A stretch of 64,000 nt of DNA, taken from positions 6,046 to 70,045 of the forward strand of contig JBGPBQ010000001.1 of assembly GCA_041481345.1 (NCBI GenBank). The letters are read 5' to 3'. Below are positions 1,599 to 58,297 of this stretch, piece after piece; the stretch's first letter is position 1, and each line of letters opens with the position of its first letter. The notes beneath the pieces were generated by a model. It was not told the origin of the DNA, made no database searches, and worked only from the letters and a program-made list of their open reading frames with translations. The DNA is from Anaerolineae bacterium. GTDB taxonomy: Bacteria; Chloroflexota; Anaerolineae; Anaerolineales; UBA4823. The position numbers and the translations under genes were made by a program.

Positions 1599-2660
1599 AT
1601 GAAAAAAATCGTCCTGCCCCTGCTGGTTCTCATCTTTATTGCCGCCGCCTGCACACCCGGTGTGAGCCGGCAAACAACCATCACACCCAATATACCTGCA
1701 ACCGCCGGAAAGGATTGGTATACGGTTTATTTCACCGACCCTACCTCCCCCAACGCATCTTCTTACCGGGGTGGACCGGATAAAGACCTGGCAGCTGCCA
1801 TAGACCAGGCACGCCTGAGCGTGGATACGGCGATCTATGATCTCAACCTGTGGTCGATCAGGGATGCGCTGATCGCGGCGCACCGGCGAGGGGTAAGCGT
1901 GCGTGTGGTCACCGAGAGCGACAATATGGACGAGCAGGAAATCCAGGACCTTAAACAGGCGGGCATCCAGGCGTTGGGAGACCGGCATGAAAGCCTGATG
2001 CACAACAAGTTCTTGGTGATCGACCGCAGTGAGGTTTGGACGGGCTCGATGAACTTCACCACAGGCGGTGCATACCTGGATAACAACAACCTGATCCGCC
2101 TGCAGTCTCCCAAGTTGGGGGAGGCTTACACCCATGAATTTGAGCAAATGTTCGTGTATGATCATTTCAGCAGCGAGAAAACCCCACAAACTCCTAATCC
2201 CATCGTGAAGATAAATGGCAGCCCGGTCGAGGTCTACTTCTCCCCGGAGGATGGCGCATTAGAACACATCCTGAGCGCAGTCAATACGGCTAAGGAGAAC
2301 ATATCCTTCCTGGCATACTCCTTTACTTCAGATGAGCTGTCTGCGGCGCTAATCGAACGCGCTAACGCCGGCGTAACCGTGAAGGGTGTCTTTGACAGAG
2401 ACCAATACCACTCCAATTCAGGCACCAAATACGACACGTTGCACAATGCCGGGCTGGACGTCTGGCTGGATGGCAACCCGCGCCTGATGCACGACAAGGT
2501 GATCATCATCGACGGGCAGGTGGTGATCACAGGCTCGTACAACTTCAGCAACAATGCTGAGCGTAGTAATGACGAGAATACCCTTATCATTCATGATCCA
2601 GTAATCGCCGCCAAGTACCTGGTTGAATTTCAACAGATCTATGAGCTATCGAAAAGGTGA
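1599..2660 (+). CDS. two-HKD phospholipase D superfamily protein (PLD-like nuclease/phospholipase), predicted lipoprotein
   Basis: Two HKD motifs are present: 'HNKFLVIDRSEVWTGSMNFT' and 'HDKVIIIDGQVVITGSYNFSNNAERSNDEN'. The N-terminus 'MKKIVLPLLVLIFIAAAC' is a signal peptide with a lipobox Cys. An alternative start at ATG 1569 is possible. Confidence 0.85.
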   Translation: MKKIVLPLLVLIFIAAACTPGVSRQTTITPNIPATAGKDWYTVYFTDPTSPNASSYRGGPDKDLAAAIDQARLSVDTAIYDLNLWSIRDALIAAHRRGVSVRVVTESDNMDEQEIQDLKQAGIQALGDRHESLMHNKFLVIDRSEVWTGSMNFTTGGAYLDNNNLIRLQSPKLGEAYTHEFEQMFVYDHFSSEKTPQTPNPIVKINGSPVEVYFSPEDGALEHILSAVNTAKENISFLAYSFTSDELSAALIERANAGVTVKGVFDRDQYHSNSGTKYDTLHNAGLDVWLDGNPRLMHDKVIIIDGQVVITGSYNFSNNAERSNDENTLIIHDPVIAAKYLVEFQQIYELSKR

Positions 2661-2666
2661 ACTAAT

Positions 2667-5201
2667 ATGGAAACGAATGGAAAATTTTACCTGGGGCGAA
2701 TTTTTGACCCCAAACAGACCCAAACCACCGACCAGCCTATACTGTACGAACCAGCAGACCTGACCACGCATGCGGTGGTGGTTGGAATGACCGGCTCGGG
2801 GAAGACGGGTCTGTGCATCGATCTATTGGAGGAAGCAGCGCTGAACAATATCCCCGCCCTGATGATCGATCCCAAGGGAGATATCACCAACACCTTGCTG
2901 CACTTCCCCAACCTCCTGCCGCAGGACTTCCAGCCGTGGGTAAACCCTGACCAGGCGCGCCGGGCCGGTAAAACGCTCGATCAGGCAGCTGCGGAAGCGG
3001 CCGCGCTGTGGAAGCAGGGTCTGACGGATTGGGGCATCGACCAACCCCGGCTGACGAAGCTGGCAGATGCGGCTCAGTTCACGGTTTTCACACCCGGCTC
3101 GGATGCGGGAATCCCGGTCAACATCTTAGCGTCATTGAAAGCTCCAGCGGTAGCGTGGGACACTAATAAAGAAACCCTGCGTGAACAGATCTCCGGCACG
3201 GTGATCGCCCTGCTCGGGTTGGTGGGCATGCAGAATATCGACCCGGTACGCTCACGCGAACACATCCTGCTTTCCAATATATTCGAAAATGCCTGGAGCC
3301 AGGGAAAAGACCTCGACCTGGGTGAGCTGATCTTACAAACCCAATCACCACCGTTCCCCAAGCTGGGGGTGTTCGACGTCAACACCTTTTTCCCCGAAAA
3401 AGACCGTTTTGAGCTGGCGATGCTGTTGAATAATATCCTGGCAGCCCCGGCATTCCAGGTGTGGATCGAAGGACAACCCTTGGAGATCGCTTCCCTGTTG
3501 TATACACCGGAGGGTAAACCGCGCCACAGCGTGTTTTACATTGCCCATCTGAGTGATTCCGAGCGCATGTTTTTCATTACCCTGCTGTATTCGGCAGTGG
3601 AAACCTGGATGCGCTCACAGACCGGCACCACAACACTGCGTGCCCTGGTGTACTTTGATGAAATCTACGGCTACCTACCGCCGGTGGCTAACCCACCCTC
3701 GAAACAACCGATGCTGCGCCTGCTCAAACAGGCGCGTGCGTTCGGCGTTGGTCAGGTGCTGGTGACGCAGAACCCGGTCGATGTGGACTATAAGGCGCTT
3801 TCCAACGCCGGCACCTGGATGATCGGCAAGCTGCAGACCGACCAGGATAAACAGCGCCTGTTGGATGGCCTGGACAGTGCCATGTCTGGCAGCCTGGACC
3901 GAGGTGAGTACGATCGCCTGATCTCCAGCCTGGGAAAGCGGGTCTTCCTGCTGCACAATGTGAACGCCAAAGGTCCAATGCTATTTCAGACCCGCTGGGC
4001 GATGAACTACCTGGCCGGGCCGCTGACGCGCACCCAAATCCCAGATCTCAATAAGCTGGCGGGTGCCACCTTGCAACCAACATCGGTAACAACGGCTGCA
4101 CCACAGGCTGCTGCCACAGCCAGTCTAGCTGCTGCCCCCGTGGCAGCCCAGTCAGCCGCGGTGCAGACCCCTGGCTCACCCGGAATATCAGTCTTGGGCT
4201 ACTCAGCCACCCGACCAGCCATTCCAGGTGATATCGGTGAATATTTCCTGCCCAACAATCTGACCTTCACCCAGGCGTTCAAAGCTGCGGGACGTGAACT
4301 CGCCTCTGGAGCACTCAGCCAGGGCTTGATCTACCGACCGGTTATTCTGTGCCAGGCGAGCGCACGCCTGGTAAATTTGAAATATAAACTCGATATCGAC
4401 GTTTCCAAAACCGCCCGGGTCGCCAACCCCGACCGACGGGGGATTGTTCGATGGGATGATTACCCCAGCGGTAGGATCGATCCGTATAGTTTCGACAAGG
4501 CTCCTGACCCCCAAGCGCGTTTCGCCTCGCTTGACGCCCCATTAAATGACACCAAAATGATGAATGCACTGCAGAAGGACTTCCTCGAATGGGCTTACCA
4601 CACCTCCCAGGTGACGGTGCACGCCAATGAGAGCCTCGACCTGTATGCCGGACCTGAGACAACCCAGGGCGATTTTCACGCCCAATGCAGCCGGGCTGCT
4701 CAGCAGGCATGTGCGGCTGAGCTCAGGAAAGCTTCATCGACGTACGACACCAAACTGCGGGCATTGCAAGACAAATTGGAGCACGAACAGGCGAAGCTAA
4801 AGCAAGACCAGGCTGAGCTCTCCAGTCGTAAATTCGAAGTGCTTGGCAGTGCTGCAGAGACGGTGGCGGGTTTACTCGGCTTTGGGCGTAAACGCTCCAT
4901 CAGCTCCTCCATATCAAAGCAGCGCATGGCCTCACACGCCAAGAGTGATGTGGACGAATCGGTCAATATGATCAAGGATTGCCAGGAGCAGATTGCCGCC
5001 ATCGAGCAAGAAAAGGCAGCTGATTTGAAGGCGGTGAATGATAAATGGGCGGAGATCGCCAGCCAGGTCAGCGAGATCCCCATCTCAGCCCAAAAGAAAG
5101 ACATCCTGCTTGATTTCTTCGGGGTGGCGTGGATGCCATACCACCTGACGAAGCTTAACGACCAGTCGTTCGAGCTGCCAGGGTTTACAGCAAGCAGCTG
5201 A
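2667..5201 (+). CDS. DUF853/YjgR-like (HerA/FtsK clade) P-loop NTPase with Ala/Pro linker and coiled-coil C-terminal half
   Basis: Walker A 'GMTGSGKTG', 'LMIDPKGD' and Walker B-like 'ALVYFDEIYGY' are present, together with 'VLVTQNPVDVDYKALSNAGTWMIGKLQT'. A low-complexity linker ('TTAAPQAAATASLAAAPVAAQSAAV') follows. A heptad-like segment 'LRALQDKLEHEQAKLKQDQAELSSRK' lies in the C-terminal half. The start is 6 nt after the PLD stop. Confidence 0.8.
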   Translation: METNGKFYLGRIFDPKQTQTTDQPILYEPADLTTHAVVVGMTGSGKTGLCIDLLEEAALNNIPALMIDPKGDITNTLLHFPNLLPQDFQPWVNPDQARRAGKTLDQAAAEAAALWKQGLTDWGIDQPRLTKLADAAQFTVFTPGSDAGIPVNILASLKAPAVAWDTNKETLREQISGTVIALLGLVGMQNIDPVRSREHILLSNIFENAWSQGKDLDLGELILQTQSPPFPKLGVFDVNTFFPEKDRFELAMLLNNILAAPAFQVWIEGQPLEIASLLYTPEGKPRHSVFYIAHLSDSERMFFITLLYSAVETWMRSQTGTTTLRALVYFDEIYGYLPPVANPPSKQPMLRLLKQARAFGVGQVLVTQNPVDVDYKALSNAGTWMIGKLQTDQDKQRLLDGLDSAMSGSLDRGEYDRLISSLGKRVFLLHNVNAKGPMLFQTRWAMNYLAGPLTRTQIPDLNKLAGATLQPTSVTTAAPQAAATASLAAAPVAAQSAAVQTPGSPGISVLGYSATRPAIPGDIGEYFLPNNLTFTQAFKAAGRELASGALSQGLIYRPVILCQASARLVNLKYKLDIDVSKTARVANPDRRGIVRWDDYPSGRIDPYSFDKAPDPQARFASLDAPLNDTKMMNALQKDFLEWAYHTSQVTVHANESLDLYAGPETTQGDFHAQCSRAAQQACAAELRKASSTYDTKLRALQDKLEHEQAKLKQDQAELSSRKFEVLGSAAETVAGLLGFGRKRSISSSISKQRMASHAKSDVDESVNMIKDCQEQIAAIEQEKAADLKAVNDKWAEIASQVSEIPISAQKKDILLDFFGVAWMPYHLTKLNDQSFELPGFTASS

Positions 5202-5204
5202 TTG

Positions 5205-5777
5205 ATGGCTGAACAACGCTATCAGATCCAGAACAGTCAAGGGGAGCAGGTCACCGTCAACCTGAAGCGCGACAAACGCCTGACGAAAACCTCGCGCTGG
5301 GAACGTCTGCCGGATGGGTCGCTCTTATTGCGTGTGCCCTACCGGCTGCCCAACCGGAGAGTCGCCGCCCTGCTCGAGCAAGTTGCCACGCAGCTGGACA
5401 AATCCATCCGCCTTCACAGGCAGCGGAATGATGCCGTCCTGCGCCAACGGGCTGAAATGGTCAATAAGAAATACTTTGACGGCAAAATTCAGTGGAATGC
5501 GATCTGCTGGGTGAGTAATATGCAGTCGCGTTTAGGCAGCTGCACCCGGGGAGGACCCACGGATGGTCAAATCCGCATCAGCGACAAGATCAAGGATTGG
5601 CCGGATTGGGTGCTGGATTACGTGATCGCGCATGAACTGCTGCACCGGATACACCCCAATCATTCGGCTGCATTTTGGAATGAACTGAGAACAGCCTACC
5701 CGCTGGCTGAACAGGCGCGTGGCTTTGTCAAGGGGGTGAGCTTCGCCTCCGGACGACCCCTGGAGGATGACCTATAA
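5205..5777 (+). CDS. DUF45 (YgjP/COG1451-like) HExxH metal-dependent hydrolase
   Basis: 'SRLGSCTRGGPTDGQIRIS...WVLDYVIAHELLHRIHPNHSAAFWNEL' matches the DUF45 pattern (WGSC...HELxHxxxxNHs.FW). ATG 5205 lies 3 nt after the ATPase stop (5199-5201). Confidence 0.8.
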   Translation: MAEQRYQIQNSQGEQVTVNLKRDKRLTKTSRWERLPDGSLLLRVPYRLPNRRVAALLEQVATQLDKSIRLHRQRNDAVLRQRAEMVNKKYFDGKIQWNAICWVSNMQSRLGSCTRGGPTDGQIRISDKIKDWPDWVLDYVIAHELLHRIHPNHSAAFWNELRTAYPLAEQARGFVKGVSFASGRPLEDDL

Positions 5778-41458: not shown

Positions 41459-43636
41459 CTAATTGCGTGCGATCATAGGTAAAAATTCAGGTAGGATAAG
41501 ATTCACTATGATGAAGTCTTGCTCGGACGCATCTGGAGGCACGCTGAGACTGCGTTCAGGTGGTGTGAAGGAATAGTCGCTCAGGGTTGGGGTAAGTGTA
41601 TAGCTCCCACTCAGTACATCCGTGATGATATAGTACCCCTGATTGTCGGAAAAGACGCTGTACCCAGGACCGGCAAATACATTTACTCCGGAAAGGGGGT
41701 GTCCAACCAAATCCGTAATATGCCCGGAGATTGTGTAGACTGGATTCTCCCCAATAAAACGCAGGATGAGTAGGCCACCTTCTCCATCGGCAACATAGAT
41801 AAGGCTCCCGACCACAGACACGCTATTAGCTTTACCAAGTGAATCGTAGAAGTCGACCTCAGTGGGGGCATTCGGCAAGCTCACGTCGATGATGCGCAAT
41901 CCGTTGTAGGAGTCAGCGACGTAGGCGAAGTTCCCGGATATGGCCACGCCAACAGCAGATCCCGGGGTAGCAATGAAGCCGACTTCTGTGGGGGCACTCG
42001 GCAGGCTCACATCAATGATACGCAGTCCAACAACATCGGCGACATAAGCATAGCTTCCAGCCACGACCACGCCAACGGCAGTACCCGGTGTATCATAGAA
42101 GCCGACTTCGGTGGGAGTGCTCGGCACACTCACGTCAATGATATGGACGCCATCCACGGTGTCGGCAATGTAGGCGTAGTTCCCGTCCACAGCAACGCTA
42201 ACTGCAGCGCCTGATGTATCGTAGAAACCGACCTCGGTAGGAGCGCTCGGTACGCTTACATCGATGACACGCAAGCCTTCATAGTAGTCAGCTACATAGG
42301 CGAAGGTCCCGGATATGGTCATGGAAACAGCATATCCCGGTGTAGCATAGAAGCCAACTTCGGTAGGAGCGCTCGGCACGCTCACGTCGATGATGCGCAG
42401 TCCATTAACATCGGTGACGTATGCGTAGTTCCCGGCCACAGCCACACCCTGGGCATTTCCCGGTGTGGCGTAGAAGCCGGTCTCCATAGGAGCGCTCGGT
42501 ACGCTCGCGTCGATGATACGCAAGCCTTCGTAGTAGTCAGCGACGTAGGCGAAGGTCCCGGATATGGCCACGGAAACAGCATTTCCCGTTGTAGTATAGA
42601 AGGCGATCTCGGTAGGGGTGTTCGGCACGCTCACATCGATGATGCGTAGTCCAGTAAATCCATCAGCGATATAGGCGTAGTTCCCGGCCACGGCCGCACC
42701 CTGGGCATTTCCCGATGTAGCATAGACGCCAACCTCCCTAGGAGCGCTCGGCGTGCTTACGTCTACGATGCGCAAACCTTCATAGTAATCAGCGACGTAG
42801 GCGAAGGTCCCGACGACGGTCACACTGTTAACATATCCCTGGGTAGCATAGAAGCCAACCTCGGTGGGGGCACTCGGCACGCTCACATCGATAATGCGGA
42901 GCCCAGTAAATCCATCAGCAACGTAGGCGTAGTTCCCGGCCACGACCACACTAATGGCAGCGCCCGAAGTATCGTAGAAGCCAACCTCAGTAGGGGCGCT
43001 CGGCACACTCACGTCGATGATGCGTAAGCCTGCAGTAGCGCCGGCGACATAGACGTAGTTTCCGGCCACGGCTACGCCCTCGGCAAAGCCCGGTGTATTA
43101 TAGAAGCCGACCTCGGTGGGTGTGCCTGGCACGCTCACGTCGACGATGCGCAGGCCATCTATCCAGTCAGCGATGTAGGCATAGTTCCCAGCCACGGCTA
43201 CACCCAGAGCTTGTCCCAGTGTATCGTAGACGCCGACCTCGATGGGAGCCGTTGGCAGGCTTACATCATAGATGTACAAGCCACCATCAACATCAGCGAC
43301 ATAGGCATAGTTCCCGATCACAGTCACGCCTTTCACAAAATCGGGCAGTAAAGCGGTCTGCCCAATCCAGGTGGGGTGATCCGGAGCAGAGACATTCAAG
43401 ATGACCAGACGAGGTCCAATACCAATATATGCATAGTCACCCTGTACGGTCACTGCATAAGTGACCCCGCCAATTTGGCCCACAGTTTTGACATTCCAGG
43501 TATCCTGGATAATCTGGTCAGACTCACCAGGTGCGTATTCCACCCCGGGTTTCGCTTCTGCGGGGCTGGCGATTAATCCGAAAAACAGCAATAGGACAGC
43601 AAGAATATTGAATATCCCCTTCATTAGAGATTTCAT
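41459..43636 (-). CDS. secreted LVIVD-repeat beta-propeller protein with C-terminal CarboxypepD_reg-like domain
   Basis: A signal peptide, then about 14 repeats of '..GNYAYVAD...GLRIIDVS.PSAPTEVGFY.T.G.A..V.V..'. The C-terminus is 'ISGHITDLVGHPLSGVNVFAG...YYIITDVLSGSYTLTP'. Confidence 0.85.
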   Translation of the reverse strand: MKSLMKGIFNILAVLLLFFGLIASPAEAKPGVEYAPGESDQIIQDTWNVKTVGQIGGVTYAVTVQGDYAYIGIGPRLVILNVSAPDHPTWIGQTALLPDFVKGVTVIGNYAYVADVDGGLYIYDVSLPTAPIEVGVYDTLGQALGVAVAGNYAYIADWIDGLRIVDVSVPGTPTEVGFYNTPGFAEGVAVAGNYVYVAGATAGLRIIDVSVPSAPTEVGFYDTSGAAISVVVAGNYAYVADGFTGLRIIDVSVPSAPTEVGFYATQGYVNSVTVVGTFAYVADYYEGLRIVDVSTPSAPREVGVYATSGNAQGAAVAGNYAYIADGFTGLRIIDVSVPNTPTEIAFYTTTGNAVSVAISGTFAYVADYYEGLRIIDASVPSAPMETGFYATPGNAQGVAVAGNYAYVTDVNGLRIIDVSVPSAPTEVGFYATPGYAVSMTISGTFAYVADYYEGLRVIDVSVPSAPTEVGFYDTSGAAVSVAVDGNYAYIADTVDGVHIIDVSVPSTPTEVGFYDTPGTAVGVVVAGSYAYVADVVGLRIIDVSLPSAPTEVGFIATPGSAVGVAISGNFAYVADSYNGLRIIDVSLPNAPTEVDFYDSLGKANSVSVVGSLIYVADGEGGLLILRFIGENPVYTISGHITDLVGHPLSGVNVFAGPGYSVFSDNQGYYIITDVLSGSYTLTPTLSDYSFTPPERSLSVPPDASEQDFIIVNLILPEFLPMIARN
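41870..43330 (-). repeat. ~129-bp coding tandem repeats (LVIVD units)
   Basis: Strings such as 'gctcggcacgctcacatcgatgatgcg' recur with a period of about 43 codons. Confidence 0.8.
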
Positions 43637-51110: not shown

Positions 51111-51203
51111 ACTAATTGCGGGTAAATAGCGTCTTAAAATGACGATGTTATAATCCAATTAGTTTTGGGAAGGTTCATCCCCTTCCGTAAAGGAGAGAAA
51201 CCT

Positions 51204-54200
51204 ATGCGCTCCTCCCATTCATCACCTGGACTGCGCCGTAAGCCATCCTTAGTCCTTAATTTAATTTCCACGCTCATCCTGGTCAGCCTGGTCTGGTCAC
51301 TGGCAGGCTGCAGCAAGGTCTCCCCAACGAATGCTGCACCCACCCCCACGAATCGAGCTGCACACCCCACCACCGCGCCCACGCAGGTGCCCCAGACCCA
51401 GCCGCCGGCGCTGGTGGAAACCGACCCTCTTCCGGGAGCTCAGATCGCCCTCAAAAACCCGATTAAATTTTATTTCAACCAGCCGATGCAGCGCCCTTCC
51501 GTTGAGGCGGCTCTTACCGGGCAGCCATCTCTTTCAGGCAGCTTCAGCTGGCAAGATGACTCAACAGTCACTTTCAACCCTGATAAAGCCCTGCTGCCCG
51601 GCACGTCCCAGGTGATCAACATCGGCACCAATGCCCAATCCGCCAAGGGGATGGCGCTTCTTCGTCCGATCAGCCTATCCTATTCCACCAGCCCAAACCT
51701 GACCCTGGTGCAAGGCCTGCCGGCGGCTGATAGCACCGATGTAGACCCCACTTCGGCAGTCGTGGCAGCTTTCAACCAGCCGGTCGTCCCGCTGGGTGCG
51801 AACCCTGCCAGCCTGCCAGCCGGGTTTACCCTGACGCCATCTGCACACGGGAAGGGTGAGTGGATCAATACCAGTACCTATATTTTCTATCCGAAACCGG
51901 CCCTGGCAGGTGGAGCTCATTACTATGTGAGAATCAACCCGGACCTAACCAGCACCAACGGTACACCGTTGGAATCCACACTCGGCTGGTCGTTCAGCAC
52001 CATCCTGCCGCGCCTGGTATCAACCCTACCAGCCGATAACACCATCAACGTGCGCCTGGATGCGAGCGTGCAGCTTAACTTCAGCTATTCCATGGATGCT
52101 AACAGCGTAGAAGCAAGTTTCTCCCTGCAAACCGGTGATGGAAATGCAGTCAGCGGGCAATCGGGTTGGAATGAAAATTTCACCACGTTTGCCTTCACGC
52201 CCACCTCTCTGTTGCAGCGAGATGCCTATTATTCCATCCTGTTGGGTAATCAGTTATACGCCCTGGGGGGCACGCCCCTGGGCGAGCAGACCGTTACGAC
52301 CTGGTATACCGTCTCCGATCTGGCGATCACCGGTAGCATACCAGCCGAAGGGGGGATCTGGAAAATTTATGATGGATTGGGGTTGTACTTAACCACCTAC
52401 ATAGACAGAGAGCGCATCGGGGATTACGTCACTTTTTCCCCCGCCGTCCCCGACATAGGCGGCTATCTGGATGAAGGACAGATGCTGTTTTTCTTCTACG
52501 GCCAGTTTGACCCGTCTACCGACTACACCCTCACTGTTTCGCCCGACCTGACCGATCTGTGGGGCAGCCGCCTGGGGAAGGCTTATACCCTCCATTTTCG
52601 CACCGCCCCGCTGGATGGTTCAGTGCAATTCCCCTACAACCCCGATTCCACTTTCCTCACCACTCAGGATAAGGGCGTGATGGCCCAGGTGACCAACCTG
52701 TCTGACATCCCGATCACATTGGGCAGCCTGACGATCGATGATCTGGTGAGAATGAACGGCACAAATGGCTTTGATTTCCGTCAAAGTTTCATCCCTGCAG
52801 ATGCCGAATCGTGGAGCTTCCACCCGGATGTGCCGCCTGACAAGTCCACCACTGTCACCATCCCAGTCTCTCCGGATGGGCAGCCGCGCTCACCCGGCTT
52901 GTATTTCATGCGCTTGAATTTACCGGATAATTCCGGCTATGTCACCTCGCTCATCCTCGCCATTAGCCGTTACCAGGCAACTCTAAAGCTCAGCCCGAGT
53001 GAAGCTTTCGTCTGGGCGGTCGACATGGACACAAACACACCGGCGGCTGGCCTGCCCGTCACAGTCTATGACCAGACGGGGAGTGTGCTGGCGACGGGGA
53101 CAACCGGTGTGGACGGAGTATTCCAGGGTTCTATCACTGCGTATCAGGATCCCAATAACGCCTCCTTTGTCATCCTGGGTAAGCCAGGTGAAAACAGCTT
53201 TGGTTTCACCATGAGTCTCTGGGATGATGGGATTAGTCCGTGGAATTTTAATATTTCCTCCCAATATTTCCCACCTAATATCCAGGGTTACCTCTACACC
53301 GACCGCCCGATCTACCGCCCCGGAGACACGGTCCATTTCCGCCTTGTCGCTCGAAAGCCATCCAATGGGCGTTATTCACTGCCTGACGCCAGCTCCTATC
53401 ACCTCGAAATTAATGGTCCCCAGGGAGAAACGATTGCCAGCTTTGATTTACCCCTCTCGGGGTTTGGCACTGGGCATGGTGAATACACCCTGCCCACCGA
53501 TAGCCTCCCCGGCGATTATTCGATCTTCGACCATGATTATTCGATTTATTTAGGATTCAAGGTGGCCGATTACCGTAAGCCGGAGATCAACCTTCAGGTG
53601 GCGTTCCAATCCACCGATGTGCTGAGTGGGACTGCCCTGACTGCCCAGGTCAGTGCGCGCTATTTCTTCGATGCCCCCGCTGGGAACCTGACAGTGCATT
53701 GGGCGCTTTACCGCCAGCCGGCTTATTTCAATATCCCCAATTACCAGGTGGGTCCGGTGGATACCAGCTGGCTGGATGTCTATTACTATAACTTTCCTGC
53801 CTATGGGCTGGGCGAACAAATATCCAGCGGGGATGTCAAGACGGATGCCAATGGTCTGGCTTCAGTGAACACACCCGCTCCGGCAAAATCTGGTCGCCAG
53901 CAGTACATCCTGGAAGTCACCATGACTGATGAAAGCGGTCAGCCGGTCAGTGGGCGCAGCTCCATCTATGTCAACCCTGCTTATTATTACATTGGGGTGC
54001 ACCCCGATGCCTGGTCTTACAAGGCAAAATCGAATGCGGGTTTCAGCGTCCAGGTGGCAGACTGGGAAGGCAACCCGGCTGGGGCGCACAACCTTTCCGC
54101 CAAGTTCCAGCGTGTGGTCTGGGTGCGCCACGACCCCACAGCCGACACGATGGGATATATGTTTCCCACGTTCGAGGCAGTCTACACCCCCATCGCCAGC

Positions 54201-57110
54201 GATACGCTTACTACCGCCGCCGATGGCACGGGTCGCCTGACATTCACCCCACCCGAGCCTGGCACCTACCAGCTGGACGTCTCAGGGGACGGCACGCTGA
54301 CTCAGGTGATCATCTGGGTCGGTGGCGCGGGTCAGGGGGTCTGGCCGTCTCTGCCCAACCAGCGCCTGCGCCTGGTGGCGGATAAGGATTCCTATTCTCC
54401 AGGCGATACTGCCCAGGTCTTCGTCCCCAATCCCTTCACCAGCCCCGCCCTCGGTCTGCTGACCGTCGAGCGCGGCACGATTATGCAACATCAAATCCTG
54501 AACCTGGAGCCTGGCGGCAGCACCATCCCACTCGCCCTCGGCATTGACGAAGCTCCCAATGTGTACGTGGCTGTTACCTTGCTGGGTGCGGACGACCAGG
54601 GCTACCCTGACTTCCGCCAGGGATACGTCAATCTGTCCGTCGACCCATCTTTTGAATACCTTAAGGTGACCCTCACCAGCACCCCTGAGCGCACCGGCCC
54701 GGGTGAGCCGGTAACCTTCAAGCTGCGCATCACGGATGCCGGCGGCTCACCGGTGCAGGGAGAATTCTCCCTCTCGGTGGTGGACCTGGCGGTGCTCAGC
54801 CTGGCTGAACCCAATGCGAAGGATATTTACTCCGCCTTTTACGGTACGCAAGCCCTCAATGTGCGCACAGGCATCAGCCTGGCCGCTTCCGGTCAGCGCT
54901 TGCGCTACATGCCCGGGGGGATGGGTGGTGGTGGTGGAGGCGAAGCCCCTGCCTCGGTCACGCGCGAGAACTTCCCCGATACAGCCTATTGGGATGCTCA
55001 AATTGTCACCGATGCTAATGGAGAAGCAACTGTCAGCATGAACCTGCCGGACAGCCTGACCACCTGGCAGGTGCTGGTGCGCGGCCTGACCAAAGATACC
55101 CTGGTGGGTGAAACCCAGCTGCAGGTGATCACCACATCGGACCTGCTGATCCGCCCGGTGACACCGCGCTTCCTGGTGGTGGATGACCATGCCTTACTGG
55201 CAGCCGTGGTGCAGAACAACACTCCCAACGCCCTGCAGGGGACTGCCACCCTTCAGGCGACTGGCTTTGTGCTGGATGACCCCAATACGATGACCCTCCC
55301 GGTTAGCGTGCCGGCTAATGGGCGCACCCGCCTGGAATGGTGGGGCACTGCCGAAGATGTGCCGAGTGCGTCCTTGCGATTCTCAGTCCAGGCTGGTGAT
55401 CTGCAGGATGCCATTCTGGTCTCCAAAGGGGCGTTACCGGTATTGCGCTACACCGCCCCCCAGACGTTTGCCACTTCAGGCACCCTGCCAGATGGCAGCC
55501 AGCGTCTCGAGCTGGTCAGTCTGCCGGTCACTTTCGATGCCAACAATGGTGCGCTCCGCGTTGAGCTTGACCCCTCCCTGGCAGCTGCCATGCTGGACAG
55601 CCTGGATTCCCTCGAAGTTTATCCATCCAGCTGCACCGAACCCATCCTCTCGAGCTTCCTGCCCAATCTGGTGACGTATTCCACCCTGCAAACCTTCGCC
55701 ATCGAATCACCCGACTTGAAAGCCCGCCTGGACCGCACCCTCAATCAAGGTCTCGCACAGCTGCTAACGCTACAGCGTGCAGACGGCGGCTGGAGCTGGT
55801 GCCAGGAAGGACAGAGTGACGCGTATATCAGCGCCGATGTGCTGATCGGGCTGGCGACCTCGCGGGAGGCAGGTATCACGGTACCGGAAGATGCAGTCAC
55901 AAATGCTGCGAGCTATATCACTTCCTCCATGATCACCCCCACCGCCACCACCCAGGCCTGGATGCTCGACCGCCTGGCTTTTGAGAACTTTGCCTTGAAG
56001 CAGGCTGGCGCCGGCAACCAGGCGAGTGCCAACCAGCTCTACCAGGTGCGCGACCAGCTCAGCCCCTGGGCAAAAGCCCTGCTGGCGCTGTCACTGGATC
56101 TGCTGTCATCGAGCAGCCCACAGGTCCCGACCCTCATTTCAGACCTACAGGCTACCGCCATCCGGTCTGCGACCGGTGTGCATTGGGAAACAGCCGACCC
56201 CGACTGGCGCAATATGACCTCCACCCTCTCCAACACCGCCATGGTCGTCTACACGCTGGCGCAGCTTGAGCCGGCCTCCACGCTGATACCCGATGCGGTG
56301 AATTACCTGATGTCCAACCGCCAACCCAATGGCTGTTGGAACTCCAGTTATGAGAACACCTGGATCCTGCTCTCGATGGATGAGGTGATGAAAGGCACGG
56401 GCGAGCTGGGCAGCAGCTATGCTTTCAGCGCCAGCTTGAATGGCACTCAAATCGCCAGTGGTCAGGCAGGAGGCGAGACCCAGCTCAACCCGGTGACGAC
56501 CAGCCTGCCGGTTAGCAGCCTGTATCCGCACGACCCCAATGCGCTGGTCATCCAGCGCGACCCCGGCACAGGGCGCTTGTACTACACCGCCGCACTGAAT
56601 GTGTCGCGGCCGGTGGAGGACGTCGCACCGCTGGATCGGGGTATTATTGTCAGCCGGTCTTATTATCCGCAGGGAGCCGACCTGAAAACGGCTGTTCCGG
56701 TTACCACCTCCAAGGTGGGCAACACACTGACCGTGCGCCTGACCATCGTCCTGCCCAATGATGCCTATCATTTCATGGTGGAAGATTACCTCCCTGCCGG
56801 AGCGGAAATCCTCAACACCCAGCTAAAGACTTCCCAGCTGGGTATAAACGGAGAGCCGGCTCCGCTGTATGACCCGCACGACCCCTACAGCCAGGGATGG
56901 GGCTGGTGGCTGTTCGACCCAGCCCGCATCTATGACGATCACATCAGCTGGACGGCTGCCTACCTGCCAGCCGGTACATACGACCTGACCTATACGATCA
57001 GCATTTTACAAGCCGGAGAATACCACCTGCTCCCCACCCGAGCGTGGATGGTTTATTTCCCTGAAGTACAAGGAAACAGCGCCGGAGTAGTGATGGAGAT
57101 TAAGCCTTGA
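51204..57110 (+). CDS. bacterial alpha-2-macroglobulin family lipoprotein with degenerate thioester site
   Basis: Trimmed to ATG 51204 after 'aaaggagag'. It has the lipobox 'SLAGCSK', N-terminal SbsA/Big-like Ig repeats, MG domains, a Gly-rich bait-like segment 'PGGMGGGGGGEAP', and a thioester-domain motif 'YPSSCTEPILSSFLP' (CTEP where CxEQ is expected). Confidence 0.9.
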   Translation: MRSSHSSPGLRRKPSLVLNLISTLILVSLVWSLAGCSKVSPTNAAPTPTNRAAHPTTAPTQVPQTQPPALVETDPLPGAQIALKNPIKFYFNQPMQRPSVEAALTGQPSLSGSFSWQDDSTVTFNPDKALLPGTSQVINIGTNAQSAKGMALLRPISLSYSTSPNLTLVQGLPAADSTDVDPTSAVVAAFNQPVVPLGANPASLPAGFTLTPSAHGKGEWINTSTYIFYPKPALAGGAHYYVRINPDLTSTNGTPLESTLGWSFSTILPRLVSTLPADNTINVRLDASVQLNFSYSMDANSVEASFSLQTGDGNAVSGQSGWNENFTTFAFTPTSLLQRDAYYSILLGNQLYALGGTPLGEQTVTTWYTVSDLAITGSIPAEGGIWKIYDGLGLYLTTYIDRERIGDYVTFSPAVPDIGGYLDEGQMLFFFYGQFDPSTDYTLTVSPDLTDLWGSRLGKAYTLHFRTAPLDGSVQFPYNPDSTFLTTQDKGVMAQVTNLSDIPITLGSLTIDDLVRMNGTNGFDFRQSFIPADAESWSFHPDVPPDKSTTVTIPVSPDGQPRSPGLYFMRLNLPDNSGYVTSLILAISRYQATLKLSPSEAFVWAVDMDTNTPAAGLPVTVYDQTGSVLATGTTGVDGVFQGSITAYQDPNNASFVILGKPGENSFGFTMSLWDDGISPWNFNISSQYFPPNIQGYLYTDRPIYRPGDTVHFRLVARKPSNGRYSLPDASSYHLEINGPQGETIASFDLPLSGFGTGHGEYTLPTDSLPGDYSIFDHDYSIYLGFKVADYRKPEINLQVAFQSTDVLSGTALTAQVSARYFFDAPAGNLTVHWALYRQPAYFNIPNYQVGPVDTSWLDVYYYNFPAYGLGEQISSGDVKTDANGLASVNTPAPAKSGRQQYILEVTMTDESGQPVSGRSSIYVNPAYYYIGVHPDAWSYKAKSNAGFSVQVADWEGNPAGAHNLSAKFQRVVWVRHDPTADTMGYMFPTFEAVYTPIASDTLTTAADGTGRLTFTPPEPGTYQLDVSGDGTLTQVIIWVGGAGQGVWPSLPNQRLRLVADKDSYSPGDTAQVFVPNPFTSPALGLLTVERGTIMQHQILNLEPGGSTIPLALGIDEAPNVYVAVTLLGADDQGYPDFRQGYVNLSVDPSFEYLKVTLTSTPERTGPGEPVTFKLRITDAGGSPVQGEFSLSVVDLAVLSLAEPNAKDIYSAFYGTQALNVRTGISLAASGQRLRYMPGGMGGGGGGEAPASVTRENFPDTAYWDAQIVTDANGEATVSMNLPDSLTTWQVLVRGLTKDTLVGETQLQVITTSDLLIRPVTPRFLVVDDHALLAAVVQNNTPNALQGTATLQATGFVLDDPNTMTLPVSVPANGRTRLEWWGTAEDVPSASLRFSVQAGDLQDAILVSKGALPVLRYTAPQTFATSGTLPDGSQRLELVSLPVTFDANNGALRVELDPSLAAAMLDSLDSLEVYPSSCTEPILSSFLPNLVTYSTLQTFAIESPDLKARLDRTLNQGLAQLLTLQRADGGWSWCQEGQSDAYISADVLIGLATSREAGITVPEDAVTNAASYITSSMITPTATTQAWMLDRLAFENFALKQAGAGNQASANQLYQVRDQLSPWAKALLALSLDLLSSSSPQVPTLISDLQATAIRSATGVHWETADPDWRNMTSTLSNTAMVVYTLAQLEPASTLIPDAVNYLMSNRQPNGCWNSSYENTWILLSMDEVMKGTGELGSSYAFSASLNGTQIASGQAGGETQLNPVTTSLPVSSLYPHDPNALVIQRDPGTGRLYYTAALNVSRPVEDVAPLDRGIIVSRSYYPQGADLKTAVPVTTSKVGNTLTVRLTIVLPNDAYHFMVEDYLPAGAEILNTQLKTSQLGINGEPAPLYDPHDPYSQGWGWWLFDPARIYDDHISWTAAYLPAGTYDLTYTISILQAGEYHLLPTRAWMVYFPEVQGNSAGVVMEIKP

Positions 57111-58297
57111 ATTCCAATTTCGCCCAGCGCGCTCTCTCCCACGCCCAAACGCTCGCTCGGACCCCGCGCGGCTCTGCCACTCTGGCGGAGAAACAGGCGG
57201 CTGAATATGTGCAAGCCCAGCTGAAATCCTTGGGGGTTCAGGATGTACACCTGCAGCCTTTTTCAGGTGAGCGCTCCATGTGGCTGTTCTTCGCCCTCGT
57301 GTTCGGCATGGCGCTGGTCGGGCACGCGGCCTTTTGGCTGCTGCGCAAGCCTATCGGAGACCTGCCCGCTACCATCATTGCCGTGATTGCCTTCAGCTTC
57401 AGCGGTTACCTGGCCTGGAGCAGGTTCACCCTGCGAGGATATCCCCTCAGCCGAACGCTGCCGCATGCTCCCAGCCAGAACGTGATTGCCAGGCTCCCCT
57501 CGGTCGGTGAAGCTCAGCGACGCCTGGTGTTGATGGCACACCTGGACAGCCATCGGGCGGTTTTCTGGTTCGCCACCGATTTCATCGTGCGCATCTTCGT
57601 CCCCATCTCCATTACTGCCACATTCGGAATTTACCTGGCTATTCCCATCTACATTCTCACAGCGCTCACCCATTGGTCAGTCTTGGGATGGCTTGGATTA
57701 TTCCTGGCATTCTTTCACTTCCTGGGATGGTTCACTGGCGTCACCGCTGACCTGGGCCGCTATTCCCCCGGTGCCAACGACAATGCTGCCTCTGTGGGCA
57801 CAGTGCTGGGTTTGGCCGAACGTCTCGCCGGGCAACCCATGCAGAACATCGAAGTCTGGCTGGCTTTCACAGGGTGTGAAGAAACCAACGCGGGTGGGAC
57901 TCTGGCTCTGATGGAGGAGCACGGGAGCGAGCTCAAAGACGCCTTGTTCGTCGATTTTGAAATGGTGGGGATAGGCGACCGGATAAGTTACATCCGCGAG
58001 GAGGGGAATATCAGCCGACTCACCATCCCGCAGGAAGTCGAAAGGCTGGTCATGCAGGTCGGGCAGGCGTATGGGCTGCAGCCGGTCCAGACGCCCCTGG
58101 TTGGGGCGTCCACCGAATGCAGCATCCTGTTGAAGCATGGCTTCAAGGCGGTCTGTTTTATTGCTCACATCCAGGGGTCCACCGTCATGCCTGAATGGCA
58201 CCGCCTGACCGACACCCCAGCCCACCTGCAGGAGGCGAGCCTGGAGCGCGTCCACGCCCTTGCCTGGGACCTGCTACAAAGGTTCGACCAGGGATAG
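57107..58297 (+). CDS. membrane-embedded M28-family metallopeptidase
   Basis: The M28 ligand motifs are 'LVLMAHLDSH', 'GANDNAASVGTVLGLAE', 'FTGCEETNAGG' and 'DFEMVG'. Four to five TM helices are inserted in the fold. The TTG start overlaps the A2M stop (57108-57110). Confidence 0.75.
   Translation: MNSNFAQRALSHAQTLARTPRGSATLAEKQAAEYVQAQLKSLGVQDVHLQPFSGERSMWLFFALVFGMALVGHAAFWLLRKPIGDLPATIIAVIAFSFSGYLAWSRFTLRGYPLSRTLPHAPSQNVIARLPSVGEAQRRLVLMAHLDSHRAVFWFATDFIVRIFVPISITATFGIYLAIPIYILTALTHWSVLGWLGLFLAFFHFLGWFTGVTADLGRYSPGANDNAASVGTVLGLAERLAGQPMQNIEVWLAFTGCEETNAGGTLALMEEHGSELKDALFVDFEMVGIGDRISYIREEGNISRLTIPQEVERLVMQVGQAYGLQPVQTPLVGASTECSILLKHGFKAVCFIAHIQGSTVMPEWHRLTDTPAHLQEASLERVHALAWDLLQRFDQG

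Follow-up and report, generated by a model that had tools for sequence, protein, structure and literature searches.

Do three genes packed end to end, encoding a phospholipase D (PLD)-family enzyme, a HerA-like ATPase and a DUF45 metallohydrolase, constitute a single system? This question is raised by a locus in an Anaerolineae bacterium (assembly GCA_041481345.1), where the three genes lie within positions 6,046-70,045 of the forward strand of contig JBGPBQ010000001.1. We refer to this stretch of 64,000 nt, all of which was analyzed, as the window, and coordinates are those of the window unless a locus is named. An initial annotation had taken the trio for a candidate conflict or DNA-processing module. 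We find that the linkages between the three genes have three different ages: there is none across the ATPase family, that with PLD is class-wide, and that with DUF45 is confined to a sub-clade. It is rather probable that the three genes are simply co-located and do not make up one system or machine.

Linkage of the three genes

The surroundings of the ATPase gene were examined at 80 species-representative genome loci found with a profile of the family. A PLD orthologue lies within 7 kb of the ATPase gene at 19 of these, all in Chloroflexota, and was not found within that distance at the other 61. None of the 15 loci recorded under a named taxon outside Chloroflexota has it; these loci belong to Thermaceae, Chlorobiaceae, Saprospiraceae, Gemmatimonadota, Phycisphaerales, WOR-3, Anaerovoracaceae, Bathyarchaeia and Methanofastidiosum. 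Distant relatives of the ATPase have no conserved partner in common: seven representatives have seven different contexts, none with a PLD gene. The DUF45 gene directly follows the ATPase gene at 0 of the 80 loci, and no YgjP-like protein occurs among the immediate downstream neighbors at 73 species-level loci surveyed with Pfam. On searching the loci by tblastn, DUF45 was found, besides the window, only at L001, L002 and the contig end of L083, and no degraded remnants were detected in relatives that lack the gene.

L001 and L002, whose ATPases are 77% and 67% identical to that of the window, carry the genes in the order PLD-ATPase-DUF45. Both also share the ATC_hydrolase, LysM and NUDIX genes, and L002 additionally has DeoC, signal peptidase, Der and YbbR. 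Since the whole block of about 18 kb is syntenic, the presence of the trio at these two loci is uninformative on any specific linkage. With DUF45 restricted to the window and three other loci, and PLD to 19 of the 80 loci, the three genes are not a conserved operon, and the triad as a conserved neighborhood, as first proposed, largely fails.

What does recur is the PLD-ATPase pair. In the Pfam census PLDc_2 is found upstream of the ATPase gene at 13 of the 73 loci and DUF5666/5667 at five, while downstream there are PEMT-like methyltransferases (seven), RecR (four), DUF364 (three) and ATC_hydrolase (three); PLD is by far the commonest neighbor family. The reverse test started from 80 metagenome loci, which carry no taxonomy, found with a profile of the PLD orthologues. 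In 59 of them the sequence continues for 600 nt or more past the PLD gene. The ATPase gene is directly downstream at 20 of these and elsewhere within 6 kb at eight, giving 28/59 linked, and was not seen at 31. At some of the unlinked loci an ECF sigma or DUF5666 gene adjoins PLD. Since such a cassette is known to lie between PLD and ATPase elsewhere, the true linkage is probably somewhat higher. Where the ATPase gene is missing there is no alternative conserved partner of PLD, the neighbors being heterogeneous.

At 39 loci the two genes are adjacent, always with PLD first and both in the same direction. The outer flanks of these pairs vary: 36 upstream genes fall into 22 clusters, and 28 downstream genes into 19. 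The pair thus persists while both flanks change, so that the pairing is real, class-restricted and dispensable, and this part of the association first proposed survives. The PLD gene is an old, frequent and dispensable upstream neighbor of the ATPase gene, within Anaerolineae only.

The DUF45 gene has a different history. Its product matches the YgjP-like family (PF01863) with E = 2.4e-19 and 70.6 bits against a cut-off of 26, and has the HExxH motif, in agreement with its initial assignment as a DUF45 hydrolase. The subfamily is narrow, with 441 matches, and for many of its members the longest listed contig equals in length one listed for an ATPase of the close clade. At L080 and L045 an ATC_hydrolase gene lies directly 3' of the ATPase gene with no DUF45 between, which marks DUF45 as a lineage-specific insertion at that junction. 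This zinc hydrolase gene is a recent arrival between the ATPase and ATC_hydrolase genes. No type I restriction genes (hsdR, hsdM or hsdS) stand beside it; its neighbors are ATC_hydrolase, LysM, NUDIX, DeoC, signal peptidase and Der. The ATC_hydrolase gene (PF14196; 5861-6373, + strand) is itself more widely kept as a downstream neighbor of the ATPase gene than DUF45, being present at L001, L002, L009, L027, L045, L080 and L084.

In the window the three genes are co-directional, and public gene calls give identical products of 353, 844 and 190 aa (Table 1). The TGA stop codon of PLD (2658-2660) is separated by 6 nt from the ATG of the ATPase gene at 2667, and the ATPase stop codon (5199-5201) by the 3 nt TTG from the DUF45 ATG at 5205. 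These spacers, and the motifs quoted with them in the initial annotation, were all found as it had placed them. The PLD stop codon lies within a Shine-Dalgarno-like hexamer, suggesting translational coupling in this genome alone. Neither junction contains a promoter-like or terminator-like site, and the overall counts of such sites within the trio are at the level of shuffled sequence. The three genes are probably co-transcribed in this Anaerolineales chromosome. The tight spacing of PLD and ATPase is not kept elsewhere; among the 39 adjacent pairs the distance varies between -115 and 540 nt (median ~85 nt).

A number of other genes were seen near members of the ATPase family. In one Anaerolineae sub-clade (L020-L022, L008 and L167; for example L167:1853-3362) a cassette of ECF sigma and DUF5667/DUF5666 (anti-sigma-like) genes is placed between PLD and ATPase, or just upstream of ATPase. 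A convergent recR gene (Toprim_4, RecR_HhH, RecR_C) directly follows the ATPase gene at four Anaerolineaceae-type loci (L032, L035, L038 and L039), and is the only recurrent DNA-repair gene near the family. At L163:4442-9046 a gene for an RNase_T-type exonuclease begins 2 nt past the stop codon of an ATPase family member of 38% identity, and upstream of that member is a gene for an N6/N4 DNA methyltransferase. A different nuclease partnership could be at work here, seen in a single case.

The ATPase and its C-terminal module

Within the HerA/FtsK superfamily the ATPase belongs to a large, ancient and uncharacterized branch, whose closest kin are HerA and YjgR/DUF853. A word-indexed search found more than 8,000 relatives, of which the best 120 are full-length, 67-100% identical and mostly from Anaerolineales. 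HMMER applied to representatives at 50% identity gave 6,505 clusters at E ≤ 0.001 and 1,671 at E ≤ 1e-30. The family is present across many bacterial and archaeal phyla with unrelated neighbors, and is usually encoded by a solitary gene; Oceanithermus and Chlorobiaceae are among the groups with relatives. Among the best 150 of the clusters the length is mostly 780-860 aa, with alignment from end to end. The ATPase had been described as exceeding the ~500-aa YjgR proteins by about 350 aa. It is indeed longer than YjgR (503 aa; PDB 11kk) by about 340 aa, but the idea of an extension was wrong: 844 aa is typical of its own family, normally ~800-860 aa, so this is not an extended DUF853 protein.

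Profile searches confirmed the domain types first assigned to all three proteins (PLDc_2, HerA/DUF853 and DUF45). For the ATPase, Pfam gives DUF87 with 30.2 bits and HerA_C/DUF853 with 23.0 bits against a cut-off of 22, both confined to the first ~75 residues. The HerA_C match (PF05872) spans profile positions 6-62, that is 57 of 502, and is far from full-length. The monomer was modeled by AlphaFold2 (AF2) with a mean predicted local distance difference test (pLDDT) of 88.6, and residues 1-465 form a RecA-like ATPase carrying a large helical insertion. When this was compared with the PDB by Foldseek, only the N-terminal half was matched, by HerA-NurA, Sir2-HerA, Sulfolobus HerA, DndH-C, TdpA and DUF4297-HerA with E = 4e-12 to 1e-8, the first four being at 4e-12 to 1e-10. 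The protein thus has Walker A and B motifs, the KQARAFG and TQNP motifs, and a RecA-like core resembling HerA structures at E ~1e-11, all of which place it within the HerA/FtsK superfamily. The model has just two short strands (aa 7-27) ahead of the P-loop at aa 40, so the protein lacks a HAS-barrel. By sequence profile, the family is roughly equidistant from HerA (1.2e-8) and YjgR (2.8e-7). The top NCBIfam matches are weak, and are to the DNA-import ATPases CedD and CedB (35.8 bits against a cut-off of 600).

We compared 33 diverse members of the family that are 35-57% identical to the query. G40-K46, D331, E332, K354, R357, Q368 and N369 are invariant. Since the catalytic residues are all retained, the ATPase should be active, judged by its sequence.

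A linker rich in Ala, Pro and Thr follows the motor domain, and leads into the C-terminal module. Both had been noticed at the outset, as an Ala/Pro linker followed by a coiled-coil-rich half, and the AF2 model resolves them into a disordered segment and a β-domain with a two-helix hairpin. Modeled alone, the module gives a pLDDT of 92.0 and a predicted template modeling score (pTM) of 0.76, and the tip of the hairpin is its sole low-confidence part. The pattern of the tip is kept in the 33 diverse members, with ~14 hydrophobic, Gly-rich residues followed by a stretch rich in Arg, Lys and Ser. This composition would suit peripheral binding to a membrane or to a partner.

The module is structurally novel, without a known relative. 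It matches nothing in Pfam at E up to 10, nothing in the PDB by sequence profile at E < 0.03, and nothing in the PDB or BFVD by Foldseek at E ≤ 0.001, where generic coiled coils alone appear. It had been asked whether this half might turn out to be a known housekeeping domain, and these searches gave none. The weak Foldseek matches include the membrane-inserting coiled-coil hairpins AhlC, MakA, SmhB and IpaB, all with E > 0.03 and not significant. A profile of the module found no fusions to other proteins, and returned only fragments, or open reading frames (ORFs) lying directly 3' of an ATPase-only ORF. Since it is seen only after ATPase ORFs, the module is specific to this ATPase.

The ATPase gene is split in three independent contigs, at L045:6983-9524, L167:3509-6041 and L168:3476-5969. 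In each there is an ATPase-only ORF of 474-503 aa and a C-module ORF of 322-375 aa, the second out of frame, with the break in the Ala/Pro linker. This could be a frameshift error of long-read assembly or a natural form made of two polypeptides.

The PLD protein and readings of the locus

The PLD protein has two copies of PLDc_2 (Pfam, E = 1.7e-50). Its two complete HKD motifs and its lipoprotein signal peptide, both reported initially, are present in the sequence. In 18 orthologues the invariant residues are H135, K137, D142, G149, S150 and N152 of the first motif, and H298, K300, D305, G312, S313 and N315 of the second. Each of the 18 aligned orthologues carries at its N-terminus a hydrophobic segment of signal, lipobox or anchor type, followed closely by a Cys in about half of them. 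The protein is therefore predicted to be extracytoplasmic in all 18, which upholds an early caveat on its location.

Is this enzyme a nuclease or a lipid synthase? Its source annotation is 'phosphatidylserine/phosphatidylglycerophosphate/cardiolipin synthase-like enzyme', and clustering with such synthases had been named at the outset as a result that would count against a DNA-processing role. When the family profile was compared with solved structures, the best matches were Nuc (1byr; 1e-33), MitoPLD/Zucchini (4e-28) and NucT (5e-17), followed by the PLD3 exonuclease and the poxvirus nicking-joining enzyme. These relatives are almost all nucleases, and it is with Nuc/NucT/Zucchini-type nucleases that the protein groups. 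It has two HxK(x)4D motifs of the Nuc/NucT type and is closest to Nuc. It falls short of the NCBIfam equivalog for NucT (83.8 against 297 bits), and it is a tandem chain with two HKD motifs, not the single-HKD form. The synthase models score lower than NucT in every case, with bac_cardiolipin at 41.6 against 290 bits, ClsB at 34.2 against 281 and PRK12452 at 29.2 against 787, and assignment as a cardiolipin or phosphatidylserine synthase was rejected. The protein is best read, from its sequence, as a surface-anchored tandem Nuc-type phosphodiesterase, and is probably a metal-independent nuclease acting outside the cytoplasmic membrane.

The window as a whole is ordinary chromosomal core, with genes for Der, signal peptidase, DeoC, YbbR, CoaE, SerRS, transporters and an alpha-2-macroglobulin. 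Its GC content is even. No tRNA genes and no Rfam families at the gathering threshold were found in the 64 kb, and no defense genes or mobile elements were seen there. Between the window and L002 the identity of the ATPase is 66.6%, compared with 79.7% for Der, 70.6% for DeoC, 61.7% for YbbR and 53.2% for signal peptidase. The ATPase thus diverges at a housekeeping-like rate, and behaves as a vertically inherited core gene in Anaerolineae. Among 50,697 phage records nothing matched the family, and 72,556 plasmids gave just two distant, partial matches to the ATPase domain, so an origin in mobile elements was rejected.

Coordinates of the genes, and of other features of the three proteins, are collected in Table 1.

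Table 1. Features of the PLD, ATPase and DUF45 genes in window coordinates
Feature	Position	Strand	Details	Basis
Gene 1, PLD	1599..2660	+	353 aa; ATG at 1599, alternative upstream ATG at 1569	ORF list and public gene call
Signal peptide	1599..1652	+	lipobox-like ...IAAAC; LIFIAAAC aa 11-18, Cys18	sequence; export predicted
First HKD motif	2001-2024	+	HNKFLVID, aa 135-142; with GSMN at 2043-2054	motif
Second HKD motif	2490-2513	+	HDKVIIID, aa 298-305; with GSYN at 2532-2543	motif
Shine-Dalgarno-like hexamer	2655..2660	+	AGGTGA; overlaps PLD stop codon, 6 nt ahead of ATPase ATG	
Gene 2, ATPase	2667..5201	+	844 aa	ORF list and public gene call
HerA/FtsK-type P-loop ATPase domain	2667..4061	+	aa 1-465	Foldseek, AF2 model, conservation
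Walker A	2784-2810	+	GMTGSGKTG, aa 40-48	motif in sequence
DPKGD motif	2859-2882	+	LMIDPKGD, aa 65-72	motif in sequence
Walker B	3642-3662	+	ALVYFDE, aa 326-332	motif in sequence
KQARAFG	3726-3746	+		motif in ATPase domain
TQNP	3765-3776	+		motif in ATPase domain
Disordered linker	4080..4184	+	Ala/Pro/Thr-rich, aa 472-506	pLDDT <50
Family-specific C-module	4194..5198	+	aa 510-844; β-domain and long antiparallel coiled-coil hairpin	AF2 model
Coiled-coil hairpin	4665-5063	+	aa 667-799; helices aa 667-736 and 745-799, ~55-70 residues each	AF2 model
Hairpin tip	4839..4898	+	VLGSAAETVAGLLGFGRKRS; hydrophobic Gly-rich stretch, then basic Ser-rich stretch	
Gene 3, DUF45	5205..5777	+	190 aa; ATG at 5205, ORF opens at 5202	ORF list and public gene call
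HExxH motif	5631-5645	+	HELLH, aa 143-147; within AHELLHRIHPNHSAAFW, aa 142-158	

Two further genes of the window may be mentioned. The alpha-2-macroglobulin (51165-58297, + strand; 1,981 aa) has Big_5, MG2, bait region, TED and bMG10 domains, and its stop codon overlaps the start of a following M28 peptidase gene. The complementary strand (41459-43636) encodes a protein of 725 aa with 12 LVIVD repeats (β-propeller) and a CarboxypepD_reg-like domain, which is probably a surface protein.

The reading that we favor is of three neighbors, of which the ATPase is most likely a cytoplasmic nucleic-acid translocase, while the PLD protein is a surface nuclease that works independently of it. Judged by all of its solved relatives, the ATPase would assemble into a ring, probably a hexamer, and pump a nucleic acid or travel along it at the expense of ATP, with double-stranded DNA as the likeliest substrate. 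The C-terminal arms may anchor this ring at the membrane or on a partner. The PLD enzyme would cut nucleic acid outside the membrane, and the DUF45 protein would be independent or a lineage-specific accessory. Since the PLD protein and the ATPase are placed in different compartments, a complex between them is not expected.

Several points weigh against this. The PLD-ATPase pair is kept in a deep clade of the ATPase with ~41% identity (L063, L072 and L075), and retention to this depth with changing flanks exceeds usual neutral synteny; it hints at a functional link, which we treat as loose. Within its sub-clade the DUF45 gene is held at 3-8 nt from the ATPase gene, leaving room for a lineage-specific functional link between these two. 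The substrate and role proposed for the ATPase derive from its membership of the superfamily. The 80 loci of the forward test were the best-scoring ones and so over-represent Chloroflexota, their ORFs were called in a mechanical and crude manner, and the presence of PLD was scored as local linkage.

In a second reading, PLD and ATPase would be a genuine two-gene pathway across the envelope in Anaerolineae. Here the surface nuclease would cut extracellular DNA, and a membrane-tethered ring translocase would import or process it in uptake, scavenging or exchange, with DUF45 as a late addition; one may loosely compare NucT with ComB, EndA/NucA with competence motors, or Nuc on a conjugative plasmid. 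The adjacent, co-directional pair with its varying flanks at 39 loci, its retention in the deep clade and the pre-eminence of PLD among the neighbors are all in keeping with this, as are the Nuc/NucT-like character and predicted export of the PLD protein and a hairpin tip that looks fit for membrane contact. The top NCBIfam matches, CedD and CedB, are also DNA-import ATPases, but the scores are far below cut-off. Moreover, PLD was not found within 7 kb at 61 of 80 loci, including every one named outside Chloroflexota, and the ATPase was not seen at 31 of 59 PLD loci. The ECF-sigma/DUF5667 cassette separates both genes in one sub-clade, the gaps are usually roomy enough for an independent promoter, and the neighbor census reveals no conserved ComEC- or CedA-like channel or competence protein nearby. 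We consider such a pathway unlikely. A bolder version would make the whole ATPase family an unrecognized membrane-tethered DNA pump, a HerA/YjgR-like ring in which six coiled-coil arms with hydrophobic/basic tips replace the transmembrane domain of FtsK, and which in Anaerolineae joins with the surface-anchored tandem Nuc nuclease in a minimal trans-envelope route of DNA uptake or exchange; this we regard as distinctly speculative and quite improbable.

Alternatively, the PLD protein might be a lipid enzyme, a phospholipase D or cardiolipin-type transphosphatidylase on the outer leaflet of the membrane, with the ATPase and its membrane-dipping tip engaged in envelope or membrane remodeling. 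The source annotation would fit, the second-best solved relative MitoPLD is a cardiolipin hydrolase, PEMT-like membrane methyltransferases are the commonest downstream neighbors (7 of 73), and the weak matches of the C-module include AhlC, MakA, SmhB and IpaB. Those matches are not significant, however, the cardiolipin synthase model reaches 41.6 bits against a cut-off of 290 and is outscored by the nuclease models, and nearly all solved relatives are nucleases. We know of no HerA/FtsK-clade ATPase that remodels lipids, and view this role as very doubtful. The evidence is still less kind to the trio as a novel anti-phage or anti-plasmid defense, in which the motor would sense or translocate foreign DNA and activate the PLD nuclease as effector, with DUF45 as protease or regulator. 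The genes are tightly packed, and HerA-type ATPases pair with effectors in Sir2-HerA and DUF4297-HerA, both among the Foldseek matches. The PLD protein also has partial matches in PADLOC to DrmC, DpdK and MkoB/C. Yet PADLOC-DB 2.0 has no full-length match to any of the three proteins; there are partial matches to HerA at 1e-13 over ~100 aa and generic PLD matches to DrmC and DpdK, and nothing for DUF45. The NCBIfam defense models are far below their cut-offs (DrmC 61 against 133 bits; HerA_antiphage 21.6 against 800), and with PHROGs likewise giving partial, sub-cut-off matches a defense assignment was rejected. The putative effector would be exported or anchored outside the cytoplasm, beyond the reach of a cytoplasmic motor and of intracellular phage DNA, which argues strongly against it as a cytoplasmic effector. 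The triad is not co-conserved, defense genes and mobile elements are lacking nearby, the ATPase does not occur in phages and hardly at all in plasmids, and it has diverged like a housekeeping gene within an inherited syntenic block. A defense function is thus not supported and seems to us highly improbable, so the conflict module first proposed falls away. A phage-challenge experiment would be unlikely to work, and that effort can be spared.

Relationship to known systems

A literature search found no paper on this ATPase family, or on a trio of PLD, HerA and DUF45 genes. Cyanobacterial 'FtsK' candidates have been placed in the YjgR family in a review (PMC7766704), a possible lead for the present family.

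Setting aside defense, the remaining interest of the locus is in a very large and phylogenetically broad branch of HerA/FtsK motors with a structurally novel C-module, which in Anaerolineae has a conserved pairing with a Nuc-type enzyme predicted to be exported. Identifying the cargo of this motor would bring a new functional class into a superfamily already known from chromosome segregation, conjugation, viral packaging, DNA repair and immunity, and would give a function to thousands of entries now called 'DUF87 domain-containing'.

The DUF45 protein resembles other YgjP-like (COG1451) proteins in its HExxH motif and clear Pfam match, and has a weak SprT-like resemblance. It differs from the usual DUF45 protein in that its Pfam match covers just the C-terminal third of the profile, in having no type I restriction genes nearby, and in belonging to a narrow subfamily whose examined cases adjoin this ATPase. 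Among solved structures, those nearest to each half of the PLD protein are Nuc (of pKM101), NucT (of Helicobacter pylori) and Zucchini/MitoPLD, and its HKD and GSxN motifs are intact. Nuc is a secreted, periplasmic protein and NucT associates with the membrane, and an extracytoplasmic location is likewise predicted here. Unlike these homodimers of ~155-aa subunits, however, the PLD protein has two HKD domains fused in a 353-aa chain, as a pseudo-dimer.

HerA, as found with NurA and in Sir2-HerA and DUF4297-HerA, provides the best fold matches to the ATPase, and shares with it the RecA-like core, the HerA-type Walker A and B motifs, the K..R..G motif and the sensor motifs. In contrast to HerA the ATPase has no N-terminal HAS-barrel and an extra C-module of ~340 aa, and its sequence resembles that of HerA in parts of the core only. 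NurA, Sir2 and DUF4297 are not among the commonest families of the 73 upstream and 73 downstream neighbors, nor in the seven distant contexts. YjgR/DUF853 (Pfam HerA_C; PDB 11kk) is similar in having the P-loop near the N-terminus without a barrel, DxKGD after Walker A and a collinear core, and in usually being a solitary gene. But YjgR is ~500 aa without the linker or coiled-coil module, and the profile match of 2.8e-7 covers ~45 residues. FtsK/SpoIIIE and the type IV coupling proteins TrwB, VirD4 and DotL belong to the same superfamily, with weak matches around the P-loop that lie below Pfam cut-offs. The ATPase lacks the transmembrane, gamma or all-alpha domains of these proteins, and its gene has no secretion-system neighbors. 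Yet if the hairpin tip binds the membrane, FtsK-style membrane-associated pumping of DNA would be a plausible analogy.

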